A DNA stretch of 32,000 nt from Bellilinea caldifistulae. GTDB taxonomy: Bacteria > Chloroflexota > Anaerolineae > Anaerolineales > Anaerolineaceae. Made by a program: the position numbers and the translations under genes. The notes beneath the pieces are model-generated. The model had not been told where the DNA came from, searched no databases, and worked only from the letters and a program-made list of their open reading frames with translations. Each line of letters opens with the position of its first letter. Within the stretch, counting starts at the first letter, position 1. The stretch covers positions 150,001-182,000 of the forward strand of contig NZ_LGHJ01000011.1 of assembly GCF_001306055.1 (NCBI RefSeq), given 5' to 3'. Positions 1,503 through 18,389 of the stretch are shown one piece after another.

Positions 1503-3287
1503 TTAATTGGCTTGAGGGACTTTCGCCACTCCGCGTTGCAAGCGGTCTACTGCGGCTTCGTCCAGCGGAATGATGGCTTGAACGCGAGTGCCTTTACCCG
1601 GAGCCGAGTGGACGCGCAAGACGGCGTTAATCATTTCAGCCCGCTCGCGCAGGTTAATCATACCCAAACTTCCCCGTTTTTCATAGGAATTGAGCACACC
1701 ATTTACATCAAATCCCTTACCATTGTCGGCAATTTCCAGAAAGACCATCCCCTCATCATCGGGCAAGCGTTTTAACCGCACCCGAATCAGGCTTGCCTGA
1801 GCGTGTTTACGGGCGTTGTTGATGGCTTCTTCTACAAGATAGAACACTGCGCTTTGCCGGTTCAGATCCAATGCATCCACAGCCTGCGGCTCAATTTCCA
1901 ATGCCACATTTTGCTGGTAGACTTCTTTCATCTTGCCGGCCATTTGTTCCAATGCGGCGTTCAATCCGTCGCTTTCCAGTGCCAGCGGCCGCAGGGTAAA
2001 CAGCATATGACGCAGTTCCTGAGTTGCGCGTAGAGCAAGTTCCTCAATCCGTTGCAGCTCTTGCGGTAATTCTTCTGGTTTGCGTTGCAGCATTTTTGCC
2101 GCAATTTGCGCCCGGGTTACAATTGCCGCAACCAGTTGAGTCGGTCCATCGTGCAGGTCTCGCGCCAGTTTCTTGCGGGTTTCTTCCTGTGCGCTGAGAA
2201 TTCGATTTTTTTCCTCTTCGATCTCCTCGAACAGGCGAGCGTTCTGAATGGCAATCACCACCTGATGACCAATCATTTCGAGCAGATCGCAGCGTTCGCT
2301 GGTAAAAAATTCAGCCTGCGGATGGGCAAACACCATCACCCCATAAATCTGCATTCCGCGCATCAGCGGCAGCACCAGTGCCGCCTGACAGGTCTGTAAC
2401 GCCAGCAGGCGTTTCAGCTCCGGGTCGGCAGCCGGGTTAGAGATCAACTGTGGTTGGCCGCTTTTCAGGGCGCGCGCCAGCCCGCCCTCTTTGGCGTAAA
2501 ACACCACCCGCCGGTCAGCCGGTGAAAGCCCGCGTGCTTCGCCGATCCCCATTTGATCGCCCTCAAAGTGCAGCACAGCGCTGATCAGGCGAGTGGTCTC
2601 GCTTTCTTCACCCAGCGCGCTCTGGGTGAGGTTCAGTGCAGTATCCAACACCACCTGATAATTCAGAGTAGCGCTGAGCGTTTCCACCATCGAGTAAAAA
2701 ATTTCCAGCCGCTTGCGTTCTTTGATCTGAGCCTTGCGTTCGGTTTCTTCGCGCAACGCCAGCAGGCTACGGTAACGCTGGCGCAGCAAACGCATCACCC
2801 GCCGGCTGAGCAGCCCCAGCACCAGCATGGCCGTCAGGTGAATTGCCAGCAAAAGGCTGGCCGGCAGCAAATAAGCCGGGAGACTTTCCGTGCCGATCAT
2901 CCGCAGAGTAACCCCGCCCTCCAGCAGGGTCACCAGCAGGGTGCTGAACAACGCCCCGCGCCATTCATAATACAGCGCCCCGCTAAGGATCGCCAACACC
3001 CCCGCCCATGAAAGGGGTCCTCCCAACCCGCCGCTGGTGTAGAAAAACGCCGCACCGATCAGCACATCGAATACCACGCCGATCAACCGGTGAGCCGGCA
3101 GACGGGTGTTGGCAACTGCCAGAATGGAAAAAATCAAGTTGAGGCCGGCGGTTGCCGCAATCGCCCCCAAAAATAGAACGGAAGGCACCCCGGCAAGCGC
3201 CTGGATTGTTATGAAAACAACCAGCACTAACCAGCGCAGCGCCAGTATCAGCAAATCGGGCAAATAGGGGAATTCTGCTCTGCGCAT
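1503..3287 (-). CDS. membrane sensor histidine kinase (multi-TM N-terminus, GAF domain, HisKA_3, HATPase_c; NarL/LuxR-partner class)
   Basis: 594 aa with a hydrophobic N-terminal third. It has the H-box DLHDGPTQ, N-box EEAINNARKHA, G1 box DNGKGF and G2 box GSLGMINLRERA. No response regulator is adjacent. Confidence 0.9.
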   Translation of the reverse strand: MRRAEFPYLPDLLILALRWLVLVVFITIQALAGVPSVLFLGAIAATAGLNLIFSILAVANTRLPAHRLIGVVFDVLIGAAFFYTSGGLGGPLSWAGVLAILSGALYYEWRGALFSTLLVTLLEGGVTLRMIGTESLPAYLLPASLLLAIHLTAMLVLGLLSRRVMRLLRQRYRSLLALREETERKAQIKERKRLEIFYSMVETLSATLNYQVVLDTALNLTQSALGEESETTRLISAVLHFEGDQMGIGEARGLSPADRRVVFYAKEGGLARALKSGQPQLISNPAADPELKRLLALQTCQAALVLPLMRGMQIYGVMVFAHPQAEFFTSERCDLLEMIGHQVVIAIQNARLFEEIEEEKNRILSAQEETRKKLARDLHDGPTQLVAAIVTRAQIAAKMLQRKPEELPQELQRIEELALRATQELRHMLFTLRPLALESDGLNAALEQMAGKMKEVYQQNVALEIEPQAVDALDLNRQSAVFYLVEEAINNARKHAQASLIRVRLKRLPDDEGMVFLEIADNGKGFDVNGVLNSYEKRGSLGMINLRERAEMINAVLRVHSAPGKGTRVQAIIPLDEAAVDRLQRGVAKVPQAN

Positions 3288-3384: not shown

Positions 3385-3560
3385 AATGTCATTCCGAGCG
3401 AAGCAACACTTTGCAGTGCAGGTGGGAATCCCCGCCCTTGCCCCCTACAGCCTTGCGGGAGATTGCCACGCCGCCTGACGGTGGCGTGGCAATGACATAA
3501 ACCAGTTTACGTCATTCCGAACGTAGTGAAGAGTCTCCGCCCATCTGCCGCTGACGGGGA
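3385..3560 (-). repeat. About 1.6 units of a hairpin-forming repeat family, the same family as 25470..25838, in forward orientation on the minus strand
   Basis: The minus-strand sequence aligns by eye with the 105-nt unit at 25556. Example: GGAGACTCTTCACTACGTTCGGAATGACGTAAACTGGTTTATGTCATTGCCACGCCACCGTCAGGCGGCGTGGCAATCTCC here versus GGAGACCCCTCACTCCGTTCGGGGTGACATTAGCTGGTTTACGTCACCGCGAGCCGCCGTCAGGCGGCGTGGCGGTCTCC there. It overlaps the last codons of pheA. Confidence 0.8.
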
Positions 3561-4366
3561 TACGACCCCAACACCCGTAAAAAGGTAGCAAACTCACCCA
3601 GATTGCGCAAGGCGTTTTGAACCCGCTCTTCGCCGATGGAACCCGCCAGATCAATGTAGAAGAAGTACTCCCACGGCTTGCCCACCAGCGGACGCGATTC
3701 GATCTTGGTCAGGTCAATTTCGCGCAGGGCAAACACACTCAACGCCTTGAACAGAGCCCCCGGTTGATTTTTGAGGCTGAACACAATCGAGGTCTTGGCA
3801 TCCCCACCCGCTTCAACTGGCTGACAGGCAATCAGCAAAAAGCGGGTGAAATTGAGCGGGTTGTCCTCCAGCCCTTCCACCAGCACCTGCATCCCGTACA
3901 ACTCGGCTGCCCGGCGCGCGGCAATCGCCGCCAGATCGCGCTCACCGCGCTGGCGCACCAGATGCACCGCCCCGGCCGTATCATGCACCGCCTCGCTTTT
4001 CAGCCCCAATCGGCGCAGGTTTTCGCTGCACTGCGCCAGCGCCTGCGGGTGGCTGATCACCCGCCGTACCTCCTCCAGCCGTACCCCCGGCAGGGCAATC
4101 AGGCAGTGGGCAATCCGCAGGTGATGCTCGCCCACCACATGCAAATTGTGCTGGAGCAGCAGGTCGTAGTTACGATGGATGCTACCCGCCAGAGAATTTT
4201 CAATCGGAATGAAACCCAGCGCCGCCTGTCCGCTCTGAACCGCCTCGAACACCTGCTCGAACGATTCGCACGGCAGGCTGACCGCGTCGCTGCCCAAACG
4301 GTCAAAGATGGCTGCTTCGGAATAGGCGCCGGGTTCACCCTGAAAGGCAACCCGCAAACCGCTCAT
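3512..4366 (-). CDS. pheA: prephenate dehydratase
   Basis: 284 aa with the PDT domain plus ACT domain, including TRF and ESRP motifs. Its start overlaps the ilvE stop (ATGA). The last ~14 aa ([14 protein letters not shown]) are encoded by repeat-derived sequence. Confidence 0.92.
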
Positions 4367-5286
4367 GGATTGACCAGATCCAGCCAGTGCTGATAGCGTT
4401 CATCCTCACCGCGCACCACCGCGTGAAAAGCCTGCATCAAGCGGTAGGTCACCGGGCCGCGCCGCCCGCTGCCGATCACACGGTGATCAATCTCGGTTAC
4501 CGGCACAATTTCGGCAGCCGTGCCGCTCACAAAACACTCCTCCGCCACGTACAGGTGATCGCGGCTGATCTGGGCTTCCTGCACCTCGTAGCCCAAATCG
4601 CGCGCCAGGGTGATGATGGCATCGCGGGTAATGCCCTCCAGCACCGCCCAGGTACCGGGTGTGTAAATCACCCCGCGCCGAACGATGAACAGGTTTTCGC
4701 CGGTGCATTCAGCCACATAGCCCTGCGGGTCAAGCATGATGGCTTCATCAAAGCCCAGCCGTGCCGATTCGGTTTTAGCCAGCACGCTGTTGGCGTAATT
4801 GCCGGTGATTTTTGCCTTGGTCATCATGATATTTGGATGCAGGCGGGTAAAGGACGAGATGTTCATGCGGGCGCCTTTTTCCAGCGCCTCATCGCCCAGA
4901 TAAGCCCCCCAGTACCACGCGGAAATCCCCACCCGCGCCCAGCCGACATCCAGATTGAGGTTCTTCACCTGACTGTCGAAGAAAATCAACGGGCGAATGT
5001 AGCAGGATTCAAAGCCGTTGGCCCGCACCACCTCGCGGCAGGCTTCTTCAAGTTGCTCCTGGGTAAACGGCAGCGAGCGAAACCCCAGAATCTTGGCCGA
5101 TTCCAACAGCCGTTGAATGTGATCCTTCAGCCGGAAGATCGCCGGCCCGCGCGGTGTGGCATAACAGCGGATGCCCTCAAAAACGCCCAAACCGTAATGC
5201 AAAGCCGAGGTCATAAACGGCACCATCGCCTGCTCGTTTTTGACCAGTTGGCCGTCCAGCCAGGTATAACCTTCGTTTTCCGTCAT
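4363..5286 (-). CDS. ilvE: branched-chain amino acid aminotransferase (class IV)
   Basis: 307 aa with the typical class IV aminotransferase sequence (FEGIRCY, GENLF, EGITR motifs). It lies within the ilv/leu operon. Confidence 0.92.
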
Positions 5287-5310
5287 GATGAATTCTCCTT
5301 TGATGAAAGA

Positions 5311-6387
5311 TTAGAATGAATCCTCCAAAGAAAGCCGATCCAGCACGGCATCGGTCATTGCCCGGGTGGAGAGGCTGCCGCCCAGATCGCGGGTTCGGCA
5401 GCCCTCCTGAAGGGCGCGCTCCACCGCCTGTTCCACCGCACGCGCCGCTTTTTCCTGCTTCAGGGCATAGCGCAACAGCAGGGCCGCGCTGAGAATCGCG
5501 CCGAGCGGGTTGGCAATTCCCTGCCCGGCAATATCCGGGGCCGATCCGTGAATCGGCTCGTACAAGCCGCCGCCCCTCCCGCCCAGCGATGCGGAAGGCA
5601 GCAAGCCCATCGAACCGGCCAGCACGGCGGCCTCATCCGTCAGAATGTCGCCAAACATGTTTTCGGTGACAATCACATCAAAGGCAGCCGGACTGGTCAC
5701 CAGCCGCATGGCGGCCGTATCCACCAGCACATGCTCGACCTGCACCTGCGGGTAGCGCCGGCTGACCTGTTGAACAATCTGCCGCCACAGGCGCGACGTT
5801 TCCAGCACATTGGCTTTGTCCACCGAGGCCAACCGCCCGCGCCGCCCGGCTGCCAGTTGAAAAGCCAGATCCACCACCCGCTCGATTTCGTAATCCCAGT
5901 ACACCAGCGAATCGACCGCCCCCTCACGCCCGTCCTGCCGCAGGCGGCCCTTCGGCTCACCGAAGTACAGCCCACCGGTCAACTCACGCACCACCAGCAA
6001 ATCCACTCCCTGCAACCTTTCGGGACGCAGCGGCGAGGCATCCACCAGAACAGGGTACACCCGCACCGGCCGCAAATTGGCAAACACGCCCAATCCCTTG
6101 CGGAGTGCCAGCAGCCCCTGTTCGGGACGGACGGGCGCAGTGGGATCATCCCATTTCGGCCCGCCAACTGCACCCAGCAGCACGGCATCCGCTTGCTGGC
6201 ACTCCGCCAGAGTGGCTTCGTCCAGCGCCGTCCCCAGCCGATCAATCGCACAGCCGCCGATCAGACGCTCTTTGTAGGTAATTTCAATCCCGGTTTGGGC
6301 TGCGGCAGCATCCAGCACCTGTCGGGCTGCATGAGTAACTTCGGGGCCAATCCCGTCGCCGGGTAATACAATGATGGTAAAGGTCAT
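5311..6387 (-). CDS. leuB: 3-isopropylmalate dehydrogenase
   Basis: Contains [13 protein letters not shown] and [10 protein letters not shown] motifs. I place the start at ATG 6387 (AAAGGA lies 12 nt upstream) rather than the TTG at 6408, which overlaps the cimA stop. Confidence 0.93.
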
Positions 6388-6404
6388 GGCAAAGACAATT
6401 CCTT

Positions 6405-7991
6405 TCAATGAACCGCTTCGGGTTGCGGCTGGGCTTCGACGACCAGAACGCCGTACTCAATCGAATCAGTCAGCGCGCGCCACGAGGCTTCGATGATGTT
6501 GGTGCTGGCACCGACCGTCCCCCAGGCACGGTGGCCGTTGCGGGTTTCGATCAGCACGCGGGTGGTTGCACTGGTACCGTTGTTGCCGTCCAGAATGCGC
6601 ACCTTGTAGTCCGAAAGGTGAAAGCGGGCAATTTGCGGGTAGTAGGGCAGCAGCGCCTTGCGCAGGGCGGCATCCAGCGCCGCCACCGGCCCGTTGCCCT
6701 CCGCGGCGGTGTGGATTAACTCGCCACCAACCCGCACCTTGACGGTTGCCTCGGCAATCATCCCCCGCCCGGCGCGGTGTTCCACCTCAGCGGTGAAGTC
6801 CACCAGTTCAAACGGTGGCTGATAATCGGCTTTCTGGCGCAGCAGCATCAGCATGACCGAAGCATCGGCCGCCTCGAACGAAAAACCTTTGGCTTCCAGC
6901 GCCTTAACTTCTCGCAGTGCCTGATTGAGATTGACCTGATCGTCAATTTCAATCCCGTTTTCCTCGGCCTTGCTGAGCAGATTACCCCGTCCGGACAGTT
7001 CCGAAACGACCACCTGCGAGCGGTTGCCGACCAGAGCCGGGTCAATATGCTGGTAGGAACGCGGCGTGCGGCGCATAGCGGCCACATGAATGCCGCCCTT
7101 GTGGGCAAAGGCATCCCGTCCCACATAAGCAAGATGTTCATCCGGAGCCAGGTTGGCGATCTCGGCTACGTAGTGGGCAAGGTCGGTCAACTGAGCCAGA
7201 TGACCGGACGGCAGGCAGGTGTAGCCCATCTTCAATTCCAAATCGGGGATGACCGAACACAGATTGGCATTGCCGCAGCGTTCGCCGTAGCCGTTGATGG
7301 TGCCCTGCACCTGCACACATCCCTCCCGCACGGCTGCCAGCGAATTGGCCACCGCGCACTCGCCGTCGTTGTGGGTGTGGATACCCAGTCGGGCATGCGG
7401 AAAGCGCGCCCGTACCGCCCGAACAATCTCGCTCACCTCCCACGGCATGCTGCCGCCGTTGGTATCGCACAGCACCAGCGTCTCGGCTCCACCGCGCAGT
7501 GCCGCCGCCAGCGTTTGCAAGGCGTATTCGGCGTCCTCCTTGTAACCGTCAAAGAAGTGTTCGGCATCGTAAATCACCCGCCGGCCCTGCGCGGTCAAAT
7601 AGGCGAGTGATTCCTCGATGATGCGCAGGTTGTTTTGCGGGGTGGTGCGCAGTACTTCATGGACATGCAGCAGCGAGGATTTACCCACCACCGTGCAAAC
7701 CGGCGCTTTCGAGTCCAGCAAGGCACGAATGTTGTCATCCTCGGCAGGGGTCTTGTTGACCGCGCAGGTCGCCCCAAAGGCGGCAATGACGGCGTGCTTC
7801 CATTCCATCTCGGCAGCGCGGGCAAAAAACTCGGCATCCTTGGGGTTGGAGCCCGGCCAGCCGCCTTCGATGAAGTCCACCCCAAACTCATCCAGCCGTT
7901 TGGCAATTGCCAGTTTATCATTCAGCGAAAGGGAAATGTCAGTACGCTGGGTACCATCGCGCAGGGTAGTATCGTAGATTTCGATTTTCAT
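6405..7991 (-). CDS. cimA: (R)-citramalate synthase (long LeuA-like form)
   Basis: 528 aa with an [16 protein letters not shown]-terminus, an HTHNDGE metal site and a C-terminal LeuA-dimer-type regulatory domain. It is distinct from the 539-aa leuA in the same operon, and its length and N-terminus fit the CimA family. Confidence 0.8.
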
Positions 7992-8015
7992 TTTCTCACG
8001 CTCCTCCGGGAACCT

Positions 8016-8606
8016 CTAAAATTGGCGCTGCGCTTCGTAACGGGCAATTTCAGCCTCCAAACCGAGCAGGTAGCCCAGTTCATCCACGCCGTTCAGCAGA
8101 CAGGTTTTGCTAAACGGGTCAATCGGGAAGGTTGCCGTACTGCCGTCCGGCAGTTCCAGCGTCTGCGAGGCCAGATCAATCGTCAGCCTTTGAGCGGGGT
8201 CGCTGCCAAAAATCTGCATCAGCCGTTCGTGCACCTCTGGGGAGACCACCACCGGCAGCAACCCGTTTTTGAGGGCATTGTTGCGAAAGATATCCGCAAT
8301 GGTTGTGGAAATTACCGCCCGAATGCCCCAACCGAGCAATGCCCAGGCAGCGTGTTCGCGCGAGGAGCCGCTGCCAAAGTTATCGCCGGCCAGTAAAATC
8401 TGCGCCCCCTGACTTTGAGGCTGGTTGAGAACGAATTCCGGGTTGGGGCTGCCGTCCGGCAGGTAACGCCAGTCGGCAAACAAACTGGCGCCCAGCCCGT
8501 TTTTGTCGGTCGTTTTCAGAAAACGCGCCGGGATGATCTGGTCGGTATCCACGTTGCTGACCGGCAAGACCACCACGGTTGAAGTTAAGCGGGTAAAGGG
8601 CTGCAT
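8016..8606 (-). CDS. leuD: 3-isopropylmalate / citramalate isomerase small subunit
   Basis: 196 aa with the [13 protein letters not shown] motif. Confidence 0.93.
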
Positions 8607-8618
8607 GGCTCTGGCTCC

Positions 8619-10049
8619 TCACGAAAGATAGGGGCGCGGATCGGTGACAACCCCGGTCAACGCCGAGGCAGCCGCCGTAAGCGGACTGGCCAGGAAAGTG
8701 CGCCCGCCCTTGCCCTGCCGCCCTTCAAAGTTGCGGTTGCTGGTGCTGATGGCGTACTGCCCCGGTTCGAGTTGATCGCCGTTCATCGCAATGCACATCG
8801 AACAGCCCGGTTCGCGCCATTCCGCTCCGGCTTCCAGAAAGACACGGTGCAGGCCTTCGGCTTCGGCCTGTTTTTTGACCTGCTGTGAGCCCGGCACCAC
8901 CAGCACCCGCAGCCCCGGCGCCACCTTGCGCCCGCGCAGCAGCGCAGCCGCCTGCCGCAGGTCGGCCAGCCGGCCGTTGGTGCAGGAGCCGATAAAGACG
9001 GCATCCAGTTTATGACCCAGCAGCGGCGCGCCCGGCTGCAACCCCATGTACGCCAGCGATTTTTCCAGCGCAGCCCGCTGAGCGGCATCGTTGATCTCCT
9101 GCGGAGAGGGGATGTGTCCGCTGATCGGGATTCCCATGCCGGGATTGGTGCCGTAGGTGACCATCGGTTCCAGCCGGCTGGCATCCAGATAAACGGTGTG
9201 GTCGAAGGCAGCGCCCTCATCGCTGGGCAGGGTGCGCCAGCGGGCAACGGCACGTTCCCACGCCTCACCTTGCGGCGCATACGGCCGCCCGGCCAGAAAT
9301 TCAAAGGTCGTGTCGTCGGGAGCAATCATGCCAGCCCGCGCCCCGCCTTCGATGGACATGTTGCAGATGGTCATGCGTTCTTCCATGCTCATGGAACGGA
9401 TGGCTTCGCCCATGTACTCAAACACATAGCCGGTGCCGCCAGCCACCCCAATCTGGGCGATCAGCGCGAGGATGACATCCTTGGCGGTAACGCCCGGCTT
9501 CAATCGCCCCTCGATGCGCACCGCGCAGGTCTTGGGCTTGCGCTGCAACAGGCATTGAGTGGCCAGCACATGCTCCACCTCGCTGGTGCCGATCCCAAAT
9601 GCCAGCGCACCAAACGCGCCGTGGGTGGCAGTGTGGCTGTCACCGCAGACAATCGTCATGCCCGGCTGAGTCAGCCCCAGTTCCGGGCCGATCACATGCA
9701 CAATACCCTGATTCGGGCTGCCCAGTCCCATCAGCGGAATGCCGAACTCGCGGCAGTTTTTTTCCATTTGCATGATCTGGCGGCGGCTGAGCTCATCGGC
9801 AAACGCCAGCCGGCCATCCCCGTTGCCGTTGGGCTTGCTGAGGGTGGGGATGCCGTGATCGAGCGTGCCGACCGTCCGCTCCGGGCGGCGGACACGCAAA
9901 CCCCGCGCCCGCAGACCGCTGAACGCCTGCGGCGAGGTGACTTCATGCACCAGATGCAGGTCTATGTACAGAACAGCCGGCGAATCCGGCGGTTGGGTAA
10001 CGACATGACTTTCCCAGATTTTTTCAAACAACGTTTTTGGGCGGCTCAT
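8619..10049 (-). CDS. leuC: 3-isopropylmalate / citramalate isomerase large subunit
   Basis: Aconitase-family motifs GDSHT, GSCTNGR and GCSMCIAMN. The start is ATG 10049, with an alternative GTG at 10055. Confidence 0.93.
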
Positions 10050-10233
10050 ACTCACTCACCGATTGACGAAGATGTTGTTCATAGGCGGTGCCGTTCATTT
10101 CGGCAGCCGGGCGGTGGGGATGACTCTTCATCAAAAAGTCGGTCATATCCCATCCGGCGGGGATGGTATTGGGGCGCACAAAGGCTTGCGCCGGATCATC
10201 TGGTTCAAAGTAAGCGGAAAAAATGGGGTTCAT
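10024..10233 (-). CDS. small conserved-looking ORF of unknown function (69 aa) between leuA and leuC
   Basis: A strong SD (AGAGGAGA) lies 7 nt before ATG 10233. The ORF fills the only sizeable gap in the operon, and its stop overlaps the leuC start by ~26 nt, a translational-coupling geometry. I recognise no family. Confidence 0.5.
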
Positions 10234-10276
10234 GATTCAGTCTCCTCTCTGGCGAATGATTGAAAAAAAGGACCGA

Positions 10277-11896
10277 TTAAACCGGCTGAACTGCCGACTG
10301 CTCCACACTGCCGTACTGACCGCTGGCCACCAATAACTTGTTCAGGGCAGCCAGGTAGGCTTTGACACTGGCCACCACAATATCCGTATCGGCACCGTAG
10401 CCGCCAAAGGTACGCGGCACTTCAGCCTCGCGCTGCGGGCTGATTTGCAGCAAGGCGTCAATGCCCTCGATGCGCACGGTTACTTCTCCCAGCGCATCAA
10501 TCCCCTCGGTTACGGCGTGCACGACGAATTCCTGCAAGGTATTGGGGGCTTTGACAATCGCATCAATGGCTTTGTAGGCCGCATCCACCGGCCCGGTGCC
10601 CACCGCTGCGCTGACATGCAGCTGACCATCCGGGCCGCGCAGGCGCACGGTGGCGGTGGGCATGCCCATCGTCCCGCAGGCCACCTGTAAACCGTCCAGC
10701 GCAAAGAACTCGCGCGGCTGGTACAATTCGTCCGAAACCAGCGCCTCCAAATCGGCATCGGTGATGGTCTTCTTGCGGTCGGCAAGGTGCTTAAACCGTT
10801 CAAACACCTGATCCATTTCAGACTCATCCAGCGCGTAACCCAGCGCCGCCAGACGGGTGCGCAGGGCGTGCCGCCCGGAGTGCTTGCCCAGAACCAGTTT
10901 GCTCTGTGTAGCCCCAACTGTTTCGGGACGCATGATCTCGTAGGTCAGGGAATGCTTGAGCATCCCGTCTTGATGAATGCCGGCTTCGTGGGCAAAGGCA
11001 TTCGCGCCGACAATCGCCTTGTTGGGCTGCACCGGCAAACCGGTGTAGTTGCTGACCAGTTTACTGATACGGCTGATCTGCGTCGTATCAATGCCGGTGT
11101 GCAGGCCGTAAAACTGCGGGCGGGTGTGGAGCGCCATGACGACCTCCTCCAGGGCGGTATTGCCAGCCCGCTCGCCGATACCGTTGATGGTCACTTCGGC
11201 CTGGCGGGCGCCGGCCCGCAAACCGGCCAGCGTGTTGGCGGTTGCCAGCCCCAGGTCGTTGTGGCAATGCACCGAAACAATGCAGTTTTCGATGCCCGGT
11301 GTGTTCTGGATGATTCCGGCAATCAGCGCGCCAAATTCATCCGGGGTGGTGTAGCCCACCGTATCGGGGATATTCAGGGTGGTTGCCCCGGCGCGGATGG
11401 CAACCGCCAGTACCTCATAGAGGAATTCCGGGTCACTCCGCCCGGCGTCCTCCGGGCTGAACTCGACATCCTCGCACAGACTGCGGGCGTATGCCACCAT
11501 TTCGGCAACCCGTTCCAACACCTGCTGACGGGTCATGCGCAGTTTGTACTGCATGTGAATTTCCGAAGTGGCTAAAAAGGTGTGGATGCGCGGTCGCGCA
11601 GCCGGCTGAACCGCCTGCCAGGCTTTGTCAATATCGCTTTTGGTGGCACGCGCCAGCCCGCAGATGATCGGCACCCGCCCGCCATCCGCCGAATTACCGA
11701 CTTCGATGGCAATCCGGCGCACGGCTTCCAGATCATCCGGCGAGGCCGCCGGGAAGCCAGCCTCGATCACATCCACCCCCAGCCGCGCCAGCCCGCGCGC
11801 CACTTCCAGCTTTTCGGCGCTGGTCATGGTCGCACCGGGCGACTGCTCGCCATCTCGCAGGGTGGTATCGAAAATGCGTACATAGGGTTCGCTCAT
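10277..11896 (-). CDS. leuA: 2-isopropylmalate synthase
   Basis: Contains [11 protein letters not shown] and HCHNDLGLA motifs plus a C-terminal LeuA allosteric domain. The start is ATG 11896, preceded by AGGAGGA; the 31-codon upstream extension in the track overlaps ilvC. Confidence 0.93.
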
Positions 11897-11925
11897 CGCT
11901 TTCCTCCTGATGAACCGATAAAAAA

Positions 11926-12987
11926 TCAACCGGCGGTTTTTTGCCAGTTTTCGGGGCGCAGGAAGCGCACCATTGCCCCGGCCTGCCACATCTCCGATTC
12001 CCGCATTTGCCGCAGTTCTTCCGCTAATTTTTCCTGATAATCCGGCTGGCTGTTGGCTTCCAGCACGCGGCGGGTTTCTTCCCCGCTGGCAACCGACTGA
12101 TACAGGCGCTCAAAGACCGGCAGGGTAGCGTTGCGGAACTCATGCCGCCAGTCCAGTGCCCCGCGTTGGGCGGTTGCTGAGCAGTTAGCGTACATCCAGT
12201 CCATCCCGTTTTGAGCCACCAGCCGAATAAGGCTTTGGGTCAATTCCTCGACCGTTTCATTAAAAGCCTCCGACGGGGTGTGGCCGTGTGCGCGCAGCGT
12301 TTGATACTGAGCCTCCATGATGCCGGCCAGCGCGCCCATCAGCACGCCGCGTTCACCGGTCAGGTCGGAATACACCTCGTGCTCAAAGGTGGTTTCAAAC
12401 AGATAGCCGGAGCCGATGGCGATGCCCAGCGCCAGCGTGCGCTCGCGTGCCCGGCCGGTGTAATCCTGCGCCACCGCAAAGCTGGAATTGATGCCGCTGC
12501 CTGCCAGAAAATTGGCGCGCACGCTGGTGCCCGAACCTTTCGGGGCGACCATCACCACATCCACATAGGCGGGCGGCACGACACCGGTCTGATCTTTGTA
12601 CACCACCGCAAATCCATGGGAAAAATAGAGGGCATCGCCTTCTTTCAGGCACGGGCGAATGCGCTCCCAGGTCAATTTCTGGGCAGCGTCCGATACCAGG
12701 TACTGCACTACCGTACCGCGCGCCGCGGCTTCTTCCATCGAGAACAGGGTTTCACCCACCACCCAGCCATCCCGCTGAGCCTTCTCCCATGATTTGCCGC
12801 CCGGGTTGACCCCCACGATGACCTTGATGCCGTTATCACGCAAATTCAACGCCTGCGCCGGGCCCTGCACGCCGTACCCCAGCACGGCGACCACTTCATC
12901 CTTCAAAACCTCCTGTGCTTTGCTGAGAGGGAATTCCTCACGGGTTACCACTTCTTCTTCAACGCCTGCAAAGTTCATTTTTGCCAT
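11926..12987 (-). CDS. ilvC: ketol-acid reductoisomerase
   Basis: 353 aa with the Rossmann motif LGYGVQG and a typical IlvC core. SD AGGAGA lies 7 nt upstream. Confidence 0.93.
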
Positions 12988-13006
12988 GTTTGCTTCTCCT
13001 CACGTC

Positions 13007-13552
13007 TCAGTTTTCGGAAATTGTTTCGGGGTGCGGGTGGGCCTGCCCGTTGCCGTTGAGCGGCACATACAACGGCGTACTGCCGCGCTCCATGGCGACT
13101 ACGCCGGTGCGCACCATCTCAATGATGCCGAACGGACGCAGCACCTCAACAAAGCCGTCAATTTTTTCCACATCCCCGGTTAATTCAACTATCAAAGATT
13201 GGTTGGTAACATCCACCACCCGCCCGCGGAAGACATCCACCACCTGCATGATTTGGGTGCGGCTTTCGGGCGGAGCCTGCACTTTGATCAGCGCCAGATC
13301 GCGCACCACGCTCTGGGTGTGGGTCAGGTCTTCCACCTGCACCACATTGACCAGCTTATACAGGTAAGCCGTCAACCGCTCGATGGCGAAATCATCTCCT
13401 TCAACCACAATCGTCATGCGCGAGAGACCGGGCTGCTCGGTGTGGCCGACGGTCAGCGATTCGATGTTGAACGCCCGCCGGCGGAAGAGCGAAGCCACGC
13501 GGTTCAGCACGCCGGGTTTGTCTTCAACCAGAACAACCAGTGTATGCGCCAT
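13007..13552 (-). CDS. ilvN: acetolactate synthase small (regulatory, ACT) subunit
   Basis: The LVVLVEDKPGVLNRV ACT motif sits at the N-terminus. The start is probably ATG 13552 (GGAG 6 nt upstream). In-frame starts at 13573, 13570 and 13564 overlap the ilvB stop. Confidence 0.9.
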   Translation of the reverse strand: MAHTLVVLVEDKPGVLNRVASLFRRRAFNIESLTVGHTEQPGLSRMTIVVEGDDFAIERLTAYLYKLVNVVQVEDLTHTQSVVRDLALIKVQAPPESRTQIMQVVDVFRGRVVDVTNQSLIVELTGDVEKIDGFVEVLRPFGIIEMVRTGVVAMERGSTPLYVPLNGNGQAHPHPETISEN

Positions 13553-13569
13553 TTTCCGCTCCATAGTCA

Positions 13570-15288
13570 TCACAATTCATCCTCTCCGGTTTCGACAATC
13601 GCCGTGCGCACCGGACGGCGGATCATGTTGTGCAGGTCGGCCCCGGCCGGCACCATCGGATAGACGCTGTCTTCCTGCTCCACCCGGAAATCAATCACCA
13701 CCGTGCCATCGCTGGCGCGGGCGGTCTCCAAAGCCGCCTGAACATCCTCGCGCCGTTCAACCCGCAAACCGGTCAGCCCGTGTGCCTCAGCCAGTTTGAC
13801 GAAATCCGGGCTGCGCATCGGGGTTGCGGCGTAGCGCCGTTCGTAGAAGAACTCCTGCCACTGGCGCACCATGCCCAGATAGCCGTTGTTGATCACGGCC
13901 ACATTGACCTTGATGCCCTCCTGAGCAGCCGTGGAAAGTTCGGCAGCCGTCATTTGAAAACCGCCGTCACCGACAATCGCCCACACCTCCGCTTCCGGGC
14001 GGGCAAATTTAGCCCCGATGGCGGCCGGCAGGCCAAAGCCCATCGTCCCAAGTCCGCCGGAAGTGATCCACTGGAAAGGCTGGTCCACGCGGTAGTACTG
14101 GGCCGCCCACATCTGGTGCTGGCCCACATCGGTGGTGATGATTGCATCCCCACCGGTGAAACGCCACAGGTCGTGAATCACATGTGCAGCGTACAGATGG
14201 CCGTCCGGCGGCAGGTATTGAATGTCGCGCACGGCGCTTTCGCCTTTCATCTCCTGGATGTGTTCCAACCAGACCGAATGATCCAGCCGGGGCAGGTGTT
14301 CCAGCATGGTTTGCAGCGTTTCCCGCAGGTCGCCGACAATCCCGACATCCACCCGCACGTTCTTGTTGATCTCGGCCGGGTCAATGTCAATGTGAATCTT
14401 GCGGGCATTCGGAGCGTAGGTCTTCAGGTTGCCGGTCACGCGGTCATCAAAGCGCATCCCAAACGCCAGCAGCAGGTCGGCTTCCTGAATGGACTGGTTG
14501 ACCCACGCCTCGCCGTGCATGCCCATCATGCCCAGATTGAGCGGATGCGAAGCCGGAAAACCGCCGATGCCCAGCAGCGTCATCGCCACTGGAATTTGCG
14601 CCCGTTCGGCAAATTCCTGCAATTCACGCATGGCGTTGGAAAGCAGCACGCCCTGCCCGGCCAGAATCAACGGCTTGCGCGCCTGCGCAATCAGTTCAAG
14701 GGCCTGCTCCACCTGCCGGCAAAGCGGGTGACGCTGCGGACGATAACCGCGCAACTTAAGCGGAGCCGGGTCATACTGCCACTCGGTGCTGTTCTGCTGG
14801 GCGTCTTTGGCAATATCCACCAGCACCGGGCCGGGGCGCCCGCTACGGGCAATGTAAAAGGCTTCCCGCAGGGCCGGGCCAACATCCTCCACCCGCGTGA
14901 CCAGGTAATTATGCTTGGTAATCGGCAGGGTGATACCGGTGACGTCCGTTTCCTGAAAGGCATCAAAACCGATGAACCGGCTGACCACCTGCCCGGTGAT
15001 GAAAACGGTCGGCGAAGAGTCCATCATTGCCGTGGCGATGCCGGTGGTCAGGTTGGTAGCGCCCGGCCCGGAAGTCGCCATGGCCACCCCCACCTTGCCG
15101 CTCACCCGCGCATAGGCATCCGCCATGTGGGCTGCACCCTGCTCGTGGCGCACCAGCACATGGTGTACCGGGTAATCCAGCATGGCGTCGTAAATTGGCA
15201 GGTTAGCCCCGCCCGGATAGCCAAACACCACTTCAACCCCCTCACGTTTCAGCACCTCCCAAACAATTTGTGCACCGGTTAATTTCAT
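13570..15288 (-). CDS. ilvB: acetolactate synthase large (catalytic, ThDP) subunit
   Basis: Contains GYPGGA and the ThDP motif GDGGFQM. The start is ATG 15288, preceded by AAGGAGGAAG. Confidence 0.93.
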   Translation of the reverse strand: MKLTGAQIVWEVLKREGVEVVFGYPGGANLPIYDAMLDYPVHHVLVRHEQGAAHMADAYARVSGKVGVAMATSGPGATNLTTGIATAMMDSSPTVFITGQVVSRFIGFDAFQETDVTGITLPITKHNYLVTRVEDVGPALREAFYIARSGRPGPVLVDIAKDAQQNSTEWQYDPAPLKLRGYRPQRHPLCRQVEQALELIAQARKPLILAGQGVLLSNAMRELQEFAERAQIPVAMTLLGIGGFPASHPLNLGMMGMHGEAWVNQSIQEADLLLAFGMRFDDRVTGNLKTYAPNARKIHIDIDPAEINKNVRVDVGIVGDLRETLQTMLEHLPRLDHSVWLEHIQEMKGESAVRDIQYLPPDGHLYAAHVIHDLWRFTGGDAIITTDVGQHQMWAAQYYRVDQPFQWITSGGLGTMGFGLPAAIGAKFARPEAEVWAIVGDGGFQMTAAELSTAAQEGIKVNVAVINNGYLGMVRQWQEFFYERRYAATPMRSPDFVKLAEAHGLTGLRVERREDVQAALETARASDGTVVIDFRVEQEDSVYPMVPAGADLHNMIRRPVRTAIVETGEDEL

Positions 15289-15349
15289 TGCTTCCTCCTT
15301 TGACGAATGATGAAAATGACGGCTCAATAGAATGAATGAGTAATCCTTC

Positions 15350-17017
15350 TCAACACATCAGCACCGCCCCCGTATCGGCGCTGGTAACAAACTGCTGATA
15401 GCGGCGCAGCCAGCGGCTGGTCGTGCGCGGTTGAAAGGGCGGCAGTTCTGCCAGCCGACGGGCAATTTCCTCGTCGCTCAGGTGCACGTTCAGGCTGCGC
15501 TCATCGAGGTTGATTTCAATCACATCACCGGGCTTGAGCGCCGCAATTGGACCTCCGGCCGCCGCCTCCGGAGAAACATGCCCAATGCAGGCGCCGCGTG
15601 TGCCACCCGAAAAACGCCCGTCGGTGATCAGGGCCACCTTATCGCCCAGTCCCATGCCCATGATGGCGCTGGTCGGGCTGAGCATCTCCTGCATGCCCGG
15701 TCCGCCCTTCGGGCCTTCGTAGCGGATGACCACCACATCGCCGGGCTGGACTTCGTGGGCGAGAATGCCGCGCAGGGCATCTTCCTGCGATTCGTAAATC
15801 CGCGCCGGCCCGCTGAAACGGCGCATATTCGCCGAAACACCGCCGGTCTTGACCACCGAACCGCGCGGCGCCAGATTGCCGAAGAGGATCGCCAGCCCGC
15901 CGTCGGTTGAGTGGGCGTTCTCCCAGCGGCGGATGACCTCTTCATCGCGGATTTCTGCTCCCTGCAGGTTCTCCCCCATCGTTTTACCGCTCACGGTCGG
16001 GCGGTCGAGGTGCAGCATGCCCGTAGCGCGCTGAATTTCGTTCAAAATCGCCGGGATACCGCCGGCGCGGTGGACATCTTCCATGTGCCACTTGCCGGCC
16101 GGGCTGACCTTGCACAAGTGACGCACCTTTGCCGATACCTGATTGATCCGTTCAAGCGAGTAGGGAAATCCGGCTTCGTTGCAGATGGCCAGGGCGTGCA
16201 GGATGGTGTTGGTTGAGCCGCCCATCGCCATATCCAGCGCAAAGGCGTCGTCCATCGCCTCGGGGGTGATGATGTCGCGCGGGCGCAGGTCGCGCTCGAC
16301 CAGATCCAAAATCAACCCGGCCGCCCGTTGAGCCAGTTCCTCGCGCTCCGGCGTATTCGCCAGCGCCGAGCCGTTGTAGGGCAGAGCAATCCCCAGCGCT
16401 TCCATCAGGCAGTTCATGCTGTTGGCGGTAAACATGCCGGAACACGAACCGCACGAGGGGCAGGCGTAATCTTCCAGCACTTTCAGTCGGCTGCGACTCA
16501 TCCGGCCGGCCTGCACCGCTCCAACCCCCTCGAAGACCGAGATCAGGTCAATCACCTCGCCATCCGGGGTGCGCCCGGCCGCCATCGGCCCACCGGAGAT
16601 GAAAATGGCCGGAATGTTGACCCGCACAGCCCCCATCAACATGCCCGGAACGATTTTGTCGCAATTGGGAATGCATACCATGCCATCGAAGGGGTGGGCG
16701 GAAATCATCGTCTCAATCGAGTCGGCAATCAGCTCGCGTGAGGGCAGCGAAAACTTCATCCCCTCGTGTCCCATGGCGATACCGTCATCCACGGCAATCG
16801 TGTTGAACTCAAACGGCACACCGCCAGCAGCGCGGACGGCTTCTTTGATCTTTTTTCCAAATGCCTGCAAGTGAACATGACCGGGGACGATATCCACATA
16901 GGAATTGACAATCGCAATAAACGGCTTACCCAAATCGGCATCGGTTACGCCGGTGGCTTTGAGTAAAGCCCGGTGAGGTGCAAATTCAAGTCTGGTTTTG
17001 ATGGGAGTGGAGCGCAT
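15350..17017 (-). CDS. ilvD: dihydroxy-acid dehydratase
   Basis: 555 aa with [11 protein letters not shown] and CPSCGSC Fe-S motifs. It is the first gene of the operon. Confidence 0.94.
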
Positions 17018-17046
17018 GGTTCTTCCTCTGGCGATAACGGGTTATC

Positions 17047-17078
17047 AAAAAAGACCGCCCGGTTGGGCGGTCTTTTTT
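17047..17078 (-). terminator. intrinsic terminator (attenuator) 29 nt upstream of the ilvD ATG
   Basis: Minus strand reads AAAAAAGACCGCCC-AACC-GGGCGGTCTTTTTT: a 9-bp GC-rich stem, a 4-nt loop and a U-tract. ACCGCCCAA (17071..17063) is complementary to TTGGGCGGT (17145..17137) inside the leader ORF. Confidence 0.8.
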
Positions 17079-17102
17079 CTTTGCTATGCGTTAGGTCTGA
17101 GT

Positions 17103-17222
17103 TTATCTGCTTCTGGACTCTCCTGCGCTCACTCTTACCGCCCAAACGGGTAATGGGTTCTCGAGTACAATAACGAGAACCAAAATCGCGATAAGAATGA
17201 ACAGGGAGAAGAACGAAATCAT
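17103..17222 (-). CDS. candidate ilv/leu leader peptide, 39 aa: MISFFSLFILIAILVLVIVLENPLPVWAVRVSAGESRSR
   Basis: The ORF lies between the promoter and the terminator. Residues 7-20 are 12/14 Ile/Leu/Val, and there are 3 Phe at positions 4, 5 and 8. The SD is weak. It is too short to appear in the ORF track. Confidence 0.6.
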   Translation of the reverse strand: MISFFSLFILIAILVLVIVLENPLPVWAVRVSAGESRSR

Positions 17223-17261
17223 CGGGGGATAAATTTTTCCAAATTGGGGAAATTTCGCCCT

Positions 17262-17290
17262 ATTGTAGGACAATTGGAGTCAAAAGTCAA
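17262..17290 (-). promoter_or_regulatory. sigma70-type promoter for the ilv/leu leader and operon
   Basis: TTGACT (17290..17285), a 17-nt spacer, then TACAAT (17267..17262). An A/T-rich UP-like tract lies upstream. Confidence 0.65.
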
Positions 17291-17333
17291 GTACCTTTCA
17301 AAAATTTTAACCTTTTCTTTACATTGGTGGAGT

Positions 17334-18389
17334 TCAAGACACATACCCCAACCGTACCATCAACTCGGCGTTGAGCAGCGAGCCGCCGGCCGCCCCGCGG
17401 ATGGTGTTGTGCGAAAGCACCGTCAGGCGCAGGTCAAAGAGAGCATCCGGGCGCACCCGTCCCACCACCGTCGTCATGCCCCGGCCGGTCATCCGGTCAA
17501 GGCGCGGCTGGGGGCGGTTTTCCTCCTCGCGCACCACAATCACCGGTCGGGCTACCGAAGGCAGATCCGCCACCGGAGCGGGAGCTTCGTACTCTGCCAG
17601 TACAGCGGCAGCCTGTTCGGGAGCAGCCCGCCCAGCCAGTTCGACCGAAAGACACACTAAATGACCGTCGGTCACTGCCACCCGGTTGGTATGCGCCGAA
17701 ATGCCGAATTCGGCAAGGCGGATCTCCTCGCCTTCCAGTTTGCCCAGCATCTTGCGCGGTTCCCACTCGACCTTGTCCTCCTCACCGCTGATAAACGGGA
17801 TGACATTATCGGCAATATCCAGCGAGGCAACCCCGGGGTAACCCGCCCCGGAAAGGGCCTGCAGCGAAACGGCAAACACCCGCTTCAAGCCAAAGGCGTC
17901 TTGCAGGGCTTTGAGGGCAATCGTCATGCCGGTGCTGGTGCAGTTCGGGTTGGTGGTAATCCAGCCCGTCCAGCCGCGCCGCCTGCGCTGAACTTCAACC
18001 AGGCGGGCATGTTCCGGATTCACCTCCGGAATGAGCAGCGGCACATCCGGCTCACGGCGGTAGGCGGAAGCATTCGAACACACCCCAATCCCGGCTTGCG
18101 CCAGGGCGGGCTCAACCTGACGGGCGATATCGGCTGGCAGCGCCGAAAACGCCAGACGAGCCCCGTTGAGCGATTCGGCTTCACTGGGCAGCACCGGCAT
18201 CATCCTCGCCCAATCGGGCATTGGCTCTGGCAACAGCCAGCGGCACACCTCGCCGTAGGTTTTTCCATGGCCGCGCTCCGAACCGGTCAACGCCACCACC
18301 TCGAACCACGGATGATTGTCCAGCAACTGCACAAAACGCTGGCCGACGCTGCCGGTTGCGGCCAGCACGGCAACCGGAATCTTGCTCAT
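17334..18389 (-). CDS. asd: aspartate-semialdehyde dehydrogenase
   Basis: 351 aa with VLAATGSVGQ NAD(P)-binding and NPNCTSTG active-site Cys motifs. Its start overlaps the aspartate kinase stop by 4 nt. Confidence 0.92.
   Translation of the reverse strand: MSKIPVAVLAATGSVGQRFVQLLDNHPWFEVVALTGSERGHGKTYGEVCRWLLPEPMPDWARMMPVLPSEAESLNGARLAFSALPADIARQVEPALAQAGIGVCSNASAYRREPDVPLLIPEVNPEHARLVEVQRRRRGWTGWITTNPNCTSTGMTIALKALQDAFGLKRVFAVSLQALSGAGYPGVASLDIADNVIPFISGEEDKVEWEPRKMLGKLEGEEIRLAEFGISAHTNRVAVTDGHLVCLSVELAGRAAPEQAAAVLAEYEAPAPVADLPSVARPVIVVREEENRPQPRLDRMTGRGMTTVVGRVRPDALFDLRLTVLSHNTIRGAAGGSLLNAELMVRLGYVS

Follow-up and report, generated by a model that had tools for sequence, protein, structure and literature searches.

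Which signal governs the large operon for branched-chain amino acid (BCAA) synthesis in Bellilinea caldifistulae, a member of the class Anaerolineae (phylum Chloroflexota), is the question raised by a short leader in front of ilvD, the first gene of that operon. We analyzed a 32,000-nt stretch of contig NZ_LGHJ01000011.1 (positions 150,001 to 182,000; hereafter, the window), in which the leader and the operon lie on the minus strand. A sequence-only reading of the window, made by a model, had proposed multivalent BCAA attenuation in a lineage outside Proteobacteria. Our in silico results point in the same direction: the architecture recurs in 14 relatives, its helices covary, and a ribosome-footprint model yielded a stall-dependent switch. 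We estimate a probability of roughly 85% that this leader is a ribosome-mediated, multivalent Ile/Leu/Val transcription attenuator controlling the ilvD-ilvBNC-leuA-leuCD-cimA-leuB-ilvE-pheA operon.

We re-read the leader base by base on the minus strand (16900-17500). The promoter, the leader open reading frame (ORF) and its Ile/Leu/Val run described by the sequence-only reading, as well as its residue counts, were all confirmed. These elements are:

17262-17290, minus strand: sigma-70-type promoter, TTGACT (17290-17285), 17-nt spacer, TACAAT (17267-17262)
17103-17222, minus strand: leader ORF of 39 codons plus TAA (ATG 17222-17220, TAA 17105-17103), product MISFFSLFILIAILVLVIVLENPLPVWAVRVSAGESRSR
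17163-17204, minus strand: regulatory codon run, codons 7-20, LFILIAILVLVIVL, 12/14 Ile/Leu/Val

The promoter scored 10/12 against the consensus and was the top promoter-like site in 17.4 kb. Transcription is predicted to start at ~17255, and the leader ATG follows ~33 nt past this expected start. The leader peptide contains 5 Ile, 6 Leu, 6 Val and 3 Phe, i.e., 17 Ile/Leu/Val (I/L/V) codons, and minor codons of the genome are used for 5/6 of the Leu and 5/6 of the Val codons. Among the 45,523 stop-free 14-residue windows in the six frames of the 32 kb, the 12/14 stretch was unique, with a runner-up of 10/14, and the ATG frame was the only one both open and Ile/Leu/Val-rich. The products of the regulated genes are precisely the three amino acids of the codon run.

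Folding of the minus-strand leader, a check suggested by the sequence-only reading, gave z = −5.6 against dinucleotide shuffles, and the minimum free energy (MFE) fold consisted of a long helix (P1) enclosing an inner hairpin (P2), plus the terminator. The RNA elements, named after the segments of classical attenuators, are:

17188-17210, minus strand: segment 1, the P1 5' strand (leader nt 13-35; covers codons F5-A12, where the Ile/Leu/Val run begins)
17156-17181, minus strand: inner hairpin P2 within P1, 8 bp, GGUUCUCG (17181-17174), 10-nt loop, CGAGAACC (17163-17156)
17118-17145, minus strand: segment 2, antiterminator strand UUGGGCGGU (17145-17137) plus the P1 3' strand (17141-17118)
17063-17071, minus strand: segment 3, ACCGCCCAA, 5' arm of the terminator and loop bases 1-2
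17047-17078, minus strand: intrinsic terminator (attenuator), AAAAAAGACCGCCC-AACC-GGGCGGUCUUUUUU, 14-bp stem, −22.3 kcal/mol

The P1 duplex (−34.7 kcal/mol, z = −3.7) was matched by 0/300 shuffles. Its 3' strand (leader nt 82-105) overlaps the antiterminator strand, by 5-7 nt in the window and by 7-17 nt in relatives; the two pairings share segment 2 and are therefore mutually exclusive. The antiterminator itself is a perfect 9-bp complementarity between TTGGGCGGT (17145-17137), inside the ORF, and ACCGCCCAA (17071-17063), and its duplex energy of −17.6 kcal/mol was attained in 3/300 shuffles. The terminator has a core of GACCGCCC-AACC-GGGCGGTC-T6 at 17072-17047, which A6/T6 flanks lengthen to the 14-bp stem; its T-run ends 29 nt before the ilvD ATG at 17017, with no promoter in between. 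Both the complementarity and the position of the terminator had been noted in the sequence-only reading, and both stood. P1 and P2 go beyond that reading and complete the classical logic. The 5' arm and loop of P2 consist of Ile/Leu/Val codons, and P2 may serve as a pause or nucleation hairpin.

The leader therefore holds the full classical set of a 1:2 anti-antiterminator, a 2:3 antiterminator and a 3:4 terminator. It shows four features by which a classical leader-peptide attenuator is recognized: a cluster of end-product codons, a terminator placed after the leader ORF and ahead of the first gene, an antiterminator exclusive with that terminator, and an anti-antiterminator carrying the regulatory codons. 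As a separate observation, the attenuator hairpin (17047-17078) is symmetric owing to its A6/T6 flanks and scored equally as a plus-strand terminator; it could halt antisense transcription arriving from the ilvD side.

We investigated the distribution of this leader using an IlvD genome scan, which kept 80 loci of at least 600 stretches, most from other phyla, and contig look-ups for close IlvD homologues from a protein search. IlvD of the window shares 95% identity with a metagenomic protein and 89% with IlvD of Anaerolinea thermophila, which places the window in the family Anaerolineaceae. The comparative set comprised 15 leaders, namely the window and 14 relatives (71-95% IlvD identity) that include A. 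thermophila UNI-1, A. thermolimosa and Thermanaerothrix. The comparison of ilvD upstream regions, likewise suggested by the sequence-only reading, showed that the promoter, the Ile/Leu/Val ORF, P2, P1, the antiterminator and the terminator were kept in 14/14 relatives. The homologous ORFs start with ATG and have 29-39 codons, and the terminator follows 21-38 nt past the stop codon; start ATG, frame, Ile/Leu/Val identity and stop position are conserved while the nucleotides drift. A matching TTGAC(A/T)-17-TAnnAT promoter occupied the equivalent position in all relatives read. The upstream gene, by contrast, varied by locus (asd, nitroreductase, AzlCD, TMEM175, MFS, TPR, PDT or peptidase M20) and lay on the opposite strand in several loci, and we therefore assign the element to ilvD rather than regarding it as the upstream gene's terminator.

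Two observations on the relatives concern the annotation and the 5' end of the leader. In A. thermophila UNI-1 (AP012029.1; L081:1287-1421), the homologous leader ORF has been called as a 44-aa gene with no Pfam hit; it is probably better annotated as a leader peptide, with the ATG 15 nt downstream as its likely start. In addition, GGGCGAAAT lies at 17252-17260 (minus strand), directly downstream of the −10 box, and occurs at the same place in L081, L082, L085, L068 and L091. This motif is conserved better than the leader ORF, in relatives down to ~77% IlvD identity, and might act as a discriminator, as a start-site element or as a protein site, or else represent a 5' GGGCG copy complementary to the terminator arm CGCCC.

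In the wider scan, an Ile/Leu/Val-rich upstream ORF (uORF) was present at most 450 nt from ilvD in 12/76 loci of many phyla, window included. No Ile/Leu/Val leader was found within 450 nt of ilvD in the Chloroflexi loci L002, L005, L009 and L019, which suggests that only part of the Anaerolineae has the attenuator; in L019, ilvD apparently lies behind another coding sequence and does not head the operon. We also observed Ile/Leu/Val-rich uORFs ~100-400 nt upstream of ilvD in L006, L008, L010, L011, L012, L013, L022 and L075 (ilvD starting near locus position 3001), which are loci of Ignavibacteria, Calditrichota, Marinimicrobia, Bacteroidota and the like. Several of these loci have no canonical terminator, and a long-range hairpin follows the uORF in L008 (roughly AAUCCCAAA ... 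UUUCGGGAUU) and L012. No Rfam family match was obtained among those of these loci that were tested. They may represent a related or convergent leader class.

Covariation was evaluated across the 15 leaders. RNAalifold recovered P2 and the terminator, with 11/17 pairs compensatory, such as GGCUCUC/GAGAGCC and GGUCCUU/AAGGACC in P2, and the terminator was kept with compensatory changes in 15/15 leaders. Only these two helices were recovered because the GGG core of segment 2 was one column off between two clades in the MAFFT whole-leader alignment; the antiterminator and P1 were consequently tested on anchored, ungapped sub-alignments. The best duplex between ORF and terminator arm fell at the equivalent ORF position, just 3' of P2, in 15/15 leaders (z −1.7 to −5.2). 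Segment 2 and the terminator arm plus loop read as follows in the window and four other loci:

Window: segment 2 UUGGGCGGU; terminator arm and loop ACCGCCCAA
L086: segment 2 UUCGGGCGG; terminator arm and loop CCGCCCGAA
L087: segment 2 GCGGUUGGG; terminator arm and loop CCCAACCGC
L089: segment 2 UUGGGUUGGG; terminator arm and loop CCCAACCCAA
L003: segment 2 GUUGGGAGG; terminator arm and loop CCUCCCAAC

Pairing into the terminator loop averaged 4.33 bp for cognate versus 2.87 bp for non-cognate combinations (permutation p ~0.0014). In the anchored alignment, 86% of antiterminator cells were paired, compared with 30-64% in slid registers, and 6/10 pairs had double changes; the covariation score was reached by 0/500 shuffles. 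For P1, assessed in the Anaerolinea/Thermanaerothrix group, 77% of cells were paired (slid registers: 45-58%) and 8/22 pairs were compensatory, which 2/500 shuffles matched. Compensatory changes thus support all four helices, i.e., the terminator, the antiterminator, P1 and P2.

Whether a ribosome could operate these helices was addressed with a footprint model. We folded a transcript truncated just upstream of the 3' arm of the terminator, let the ribosome cover positions −15 to +13 relative to the A site, and forbade any pair across the ribosome. In the window, all 7/7 core bases of the antiterminator paired when the A site was at codons 5-22; no antiterminator formed when it was anywhere between codon 24 and the stop codon, nor in RNA free of ribosomes. 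The stall positions that release the antiterminator match the location of the Ile/Leu/Val run, and a stall-dependent antiterminator was obtained in 15/15 leaders. When ribosome-spanning pairs were allowed, the antiterminator was lost at codons 17-20 with P1 closing around the ribosome, a configuration that we deemed unrealistic.

On this basis, we propose the following mechanism. Transcription would start at the strong promoter, and a ribosome would begin the 39-codon leader ORF. With ample charged tRNA for Ile, Leu and Val, the ribosome would pass codons 7-20 and reach the stop codon (17105-17103). In its wake, or on RNA that is not being translated, segment 1 would pair with segment 2 to form P1, leaving segment 3 free to form the terminator with segment 4, and RNA polymerase would stop at ~17047, upstream of ilvD. 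A shortage of any one of these charged tRNAs would make the ribosome stall in the run, blocking P1 and melting P2, and UUGGGCGGU of segment 2 could then pair with the emerging ACCGCCCAA before the terminator 3' arm is made. With the antiterminator formed, the terminator would have no nucleation and the operon would be transcribed. What the sequences show directly are the elements themselves, the way in which they exclude one another, and their conservation and covariation; that the ORF is translated, that ribosomes stall on it, that the helices compete kinetically and that P2 causes pausing are steps that we infer.

Several results weigh against this reading. The leader ORF has no good Shine-Dalgarno sequence in the window or in relatives, a weakness that the sequence-only reading had already flagged. 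P1 is statistically weak in some relatives (z −0.2 to −4.2, mononucleotide shuffles) and is partly compositional, with pyrimidine-rich Ile/Leu/Val codons facing a purine-rich segment 2; shuffle significance is uneven owing to this base composition, and P1 was therefore judged by covariation. In 5/15 leaders, the MFE structure of the truncated RNA contains the antiterminator even with no ribosome present. At equilibrium, the terminator state is favored for the full leader (−67.2 versus −43.1 kcal/mol) and even with a stalled ribosome (−40.0 versus −32.6 kcal/mol); the switch decision must therefore be kinetic, as it is in the trp attenuator of Escherichia coli. To our knowledge, tight coupling of transcription and translation has had no demonstration in Chloroflexota so far.

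Other explanations were weighed against the same data. If the ORF encoded a stable small membrane peptide followed by its own terminator, ilvD would be expressed by read-through or from another promoter, independently of BCAA supply. The ~20-residue hydrophobic stretch, the conservation of the ORF in 15 genomes and its existing call as a 44-aa hypothetical gene in A. thermophila agree with such a peptide, which the sequence-only reading had kept as a caveat. Against it, 149/162 run-core residues across the 15 homologues are I/L/V (92%; L 58, I 49, V 42) and F, A, G, M and W are almost missing, whereas the I/L/V share of a typical membrane helix is far lower. Moreover, in the close pairs compared, changes in the run were synonymous or I/L/V swaps, whereas those in the C-terminal tail were radical (e.g., R to E, M to R, D to H); the residues above the P2 3' arm also varied radically (EN, KS, KD, KG) with base pairing retained. 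Substitution patterns of this type fit a sensor ORF under RNA-structure constraint, not a functional peptide. The covariation of segment 2, which lies in the ORF, with the terminator loop is inexplicable by peptide function, no promoter lies in the gap of only 29 nt between terminator and ilvD, and the element always precedes ilvD whatever the upstream gene. We thus consider a membrane peptide highly improbable.

Alternative helices alone do not prove a role of the ribosome, and the switch might be real but set by a protein, uncharged tRNA or a small ligand, with the Ile/Leu/Val ORF being incidental. T-box and protein-mediated control of ilv-leu genes do occur in other bacteria, and the weak Shine-Dalgarno sequence would also be in line with this possibility. 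However, no T-box or riboswitch match appeared at E ≤ 10 in the leader region or at the gathering threshold in 20 related loci, conservation extends to the ATG, the frame, the I/L/V codon identity and the stop position (21-38 nt before the terminator), Ile/Leu/Val richness is restricted to the ATG frame, and the antiterminator-freeing stall window coincides with the codon run. A switch that bypasses the ribosome is therefore quite unlikely, if somewhat less so than the membrane peptide. A chance juxtaposition, in which the hairpin is the terminator of asd and both the ORF and the 9-bp complementarity are coincidental, could draw on the genes upstream of the leader, aspartate kinase (lysC) and aspartate-semialdehyde dehydrogenase (asd): asd ends ~260 nt upstream on the same strand without a terminator directly behind it, and lysC-asd transcripts probably end at the leader hairpin. 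Yet a strong promoter lies between asd and the leader ORF, the terminator and ORF persist in relatives with other, often opposite-strand, upstream genes, and every chance control was unfavorable to coincidence (duplex shuffles, permutation, covariation shuffles and the window scan). The comparative data effectively refute this explanation.

The three Phe codons had been linked by the sequence-only reading to pheA, which is the last, translationally coupled gene of the operon and unusual in an ilv-leu operon. Conservation did not support a designed connection of this kind: homologous leaders contain 0-4 Phe codons, and 4/15 have none. F5 and F8 of the window do lie in segment 1, inside the effective stall window (codons 5-22), and Phe starvation could therefore also relieve termination, in keeping with pheA as part of the operon; a four-input sensor of this kind and/or a second, trans-acting role of the hydrophobic peptide is conceivable but unlikely. 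One hint of co-variation between Phe codons and pheA came from L089, whose pheA is located upstream of the leader instead of in the operon and whose leader lacks Phe codons.

A known RNA family, T-box or other, was considered as the identity of the leader and rejected, the only Rfam matches being sub-threshold and of terminator type. No match reached the gathering threshold in the window or in 20 related loci, the T-box and the Leu, Thr, Phe, His and Trp leader families included, and among all matches with E ≤ 10 in 16950-17400 the T-box model RF00230 was absent, in agreement with the sequence-only reading. The best sub-threshold match was Leu_leader (RF00512; 29.7 bits versus a gathering threshold of 50). 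Because it is sub-threshold, covers only the terminator and occurs on both strands, it reflects a generic terminator hairpin, not homology; what the Anaerolineae leader has in common with Leu_leader and other Rfam amino-acid leaders is the mechanism class.

In enterobacteria, the ilvGMEDA (ilvL) and ilvBN (ivbL) operons have a constitutive promoter, a short ORF with mixed Ile/Leu/Val codons, 1:2, 2:3 and 3:4 helices, a terminator before the first BCAA gene and a multivalent response. The Anaerolineae leader shares the logic of ilvGMEDA, ilvBN and leu. It differs from ilvGMEDA and ilvBN in belonging to Chloroflexota, in showing no sequence or covariance-model similarity, in preceding a far larger operon (ilv + leu + cimA + ilvE + pheA), in having its stop codon past segment 2, and in the extra conserved P2 inside the codon run.

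The sequence-only reading had contrasted such leaders with a T-box in the ilv-leu operon of Firmicutes. T-box control has the pathway and a terminator/antiterminator decision reporting tRNA charging in common with the Anaerolineae leader, but a T-box binds tRNA directly, whereas the leader proposed here senses charging via a ribosome translating a coding leader. The contrast itself was too simple, in that the ilvD-first ilv-leu operons of Staphylococcus aureus and Listeria use leader peptides (PMC5794164, PMC5864092). Those of S. aureus and L. monocytogenes (Rli60) are likewise non-proteobacterial ribosome-mediated attenuators directly before ilvD of a combined ilv-leu operon; however, they are Leu-rich or Ile-focused, act with CodY, are unrelated in sequence and structure, and have been tested experimentally, whereas the Anaerolineae leader is known in silico. 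Corynebacterium ilvBNC also has a leader peptide, described as the ilvB-II motif with a three-hairpin model (PMC10272879, PMC11857589). It resembles the Anaerolineae leader in its BCAA-rich uORF, three hairpins, terminator/antiterminator choice and Gram-positive-type lineage, but precedes ilvB instead of ilvD, is unrelated in sequence and has another layout of regulatory codons. Comparative genomics has also yielded candidate attenuators with a BCAA-rich uORF, the ilvB-OMG and Leptospira ilvB motifs (PMC10272879); like the Anaerolineae leader they lie outside the model phyla, but they are associated with ilvB. No Rfam match of the ilvB-OMG or Leptospira type was found in the window or the 20 related loci, the presence of those models in the library being unverified.

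BCAA leader peptides are thus known in Firmicutes and Corynebacterium, and the novelty is therefore lower than the sequence-only reading implied. In the literature searched, we found no report of such a leader peptide or attenuator for Chloroflexota or Anaerolinea, where a prediction in the survey of Lopatovskaya et al. (2010) is possible. Leaders of this kind, known in Proteobacteria, Actinobacteria and Firmicutes, are apparently new for Chloroflexota. While leaving the understanding of attenuation itself unchanged, the Anaerolineae leader would be a concrete, conserved example of ribosome-mediated attenuation in this phylum, one not covered by Rfam, and would imply functional transcription-translation coupling in the Anaerolineae lineage. 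In practical terms, the 15 aligned leaders, with their covariation, can seed a new RNA family, and the hypothetical 44-aa protein of A. thermophila would be re-annotated as a leader peptide.

The genes downstream of the leader were assigned by NCBIfam and Pfam:

15350-17017, minus strand: ilvD, dihydroxy-acid dehydratase, first operon gene (NCBIfam TIGR00110, 815 bits)
3512-15327, minus strand: rest of the operon, comprising ilvB, ilvN, ilvC, leuA, a 69-aa ORF, leuC, leuD, cimA, leuB, ilvE and pheA

The ilvD start is preceded by a Shine-Dalgarno sequence, GAGGA, at 17028-17024. No strong internal terminator was detected in the operon. The count of 12 ORFs in the sequence-only reading was right, with the qualification that 11 are enzymes and one is the 69-aa ORF between leuA and leuC. 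This ORF (10024-10233, minus strand) has a strong Shine-Dalgarno sequence, GAGAGGAGA; it occupies the ~220 nt that separate leuA from leuC and extends over the annotated start of leuC. A weak hairpin resembling a terminator is located at the leuA end (10286-10272). At the other end of leuA, the longest ORF has its start at GTG 11989, within the end of ilvC. Since alignments to the family models begin only at residue 31-37, the true start is probably the ATG at ~11896 (MSEPYVRIF...; region 11896-11989, minus strand).

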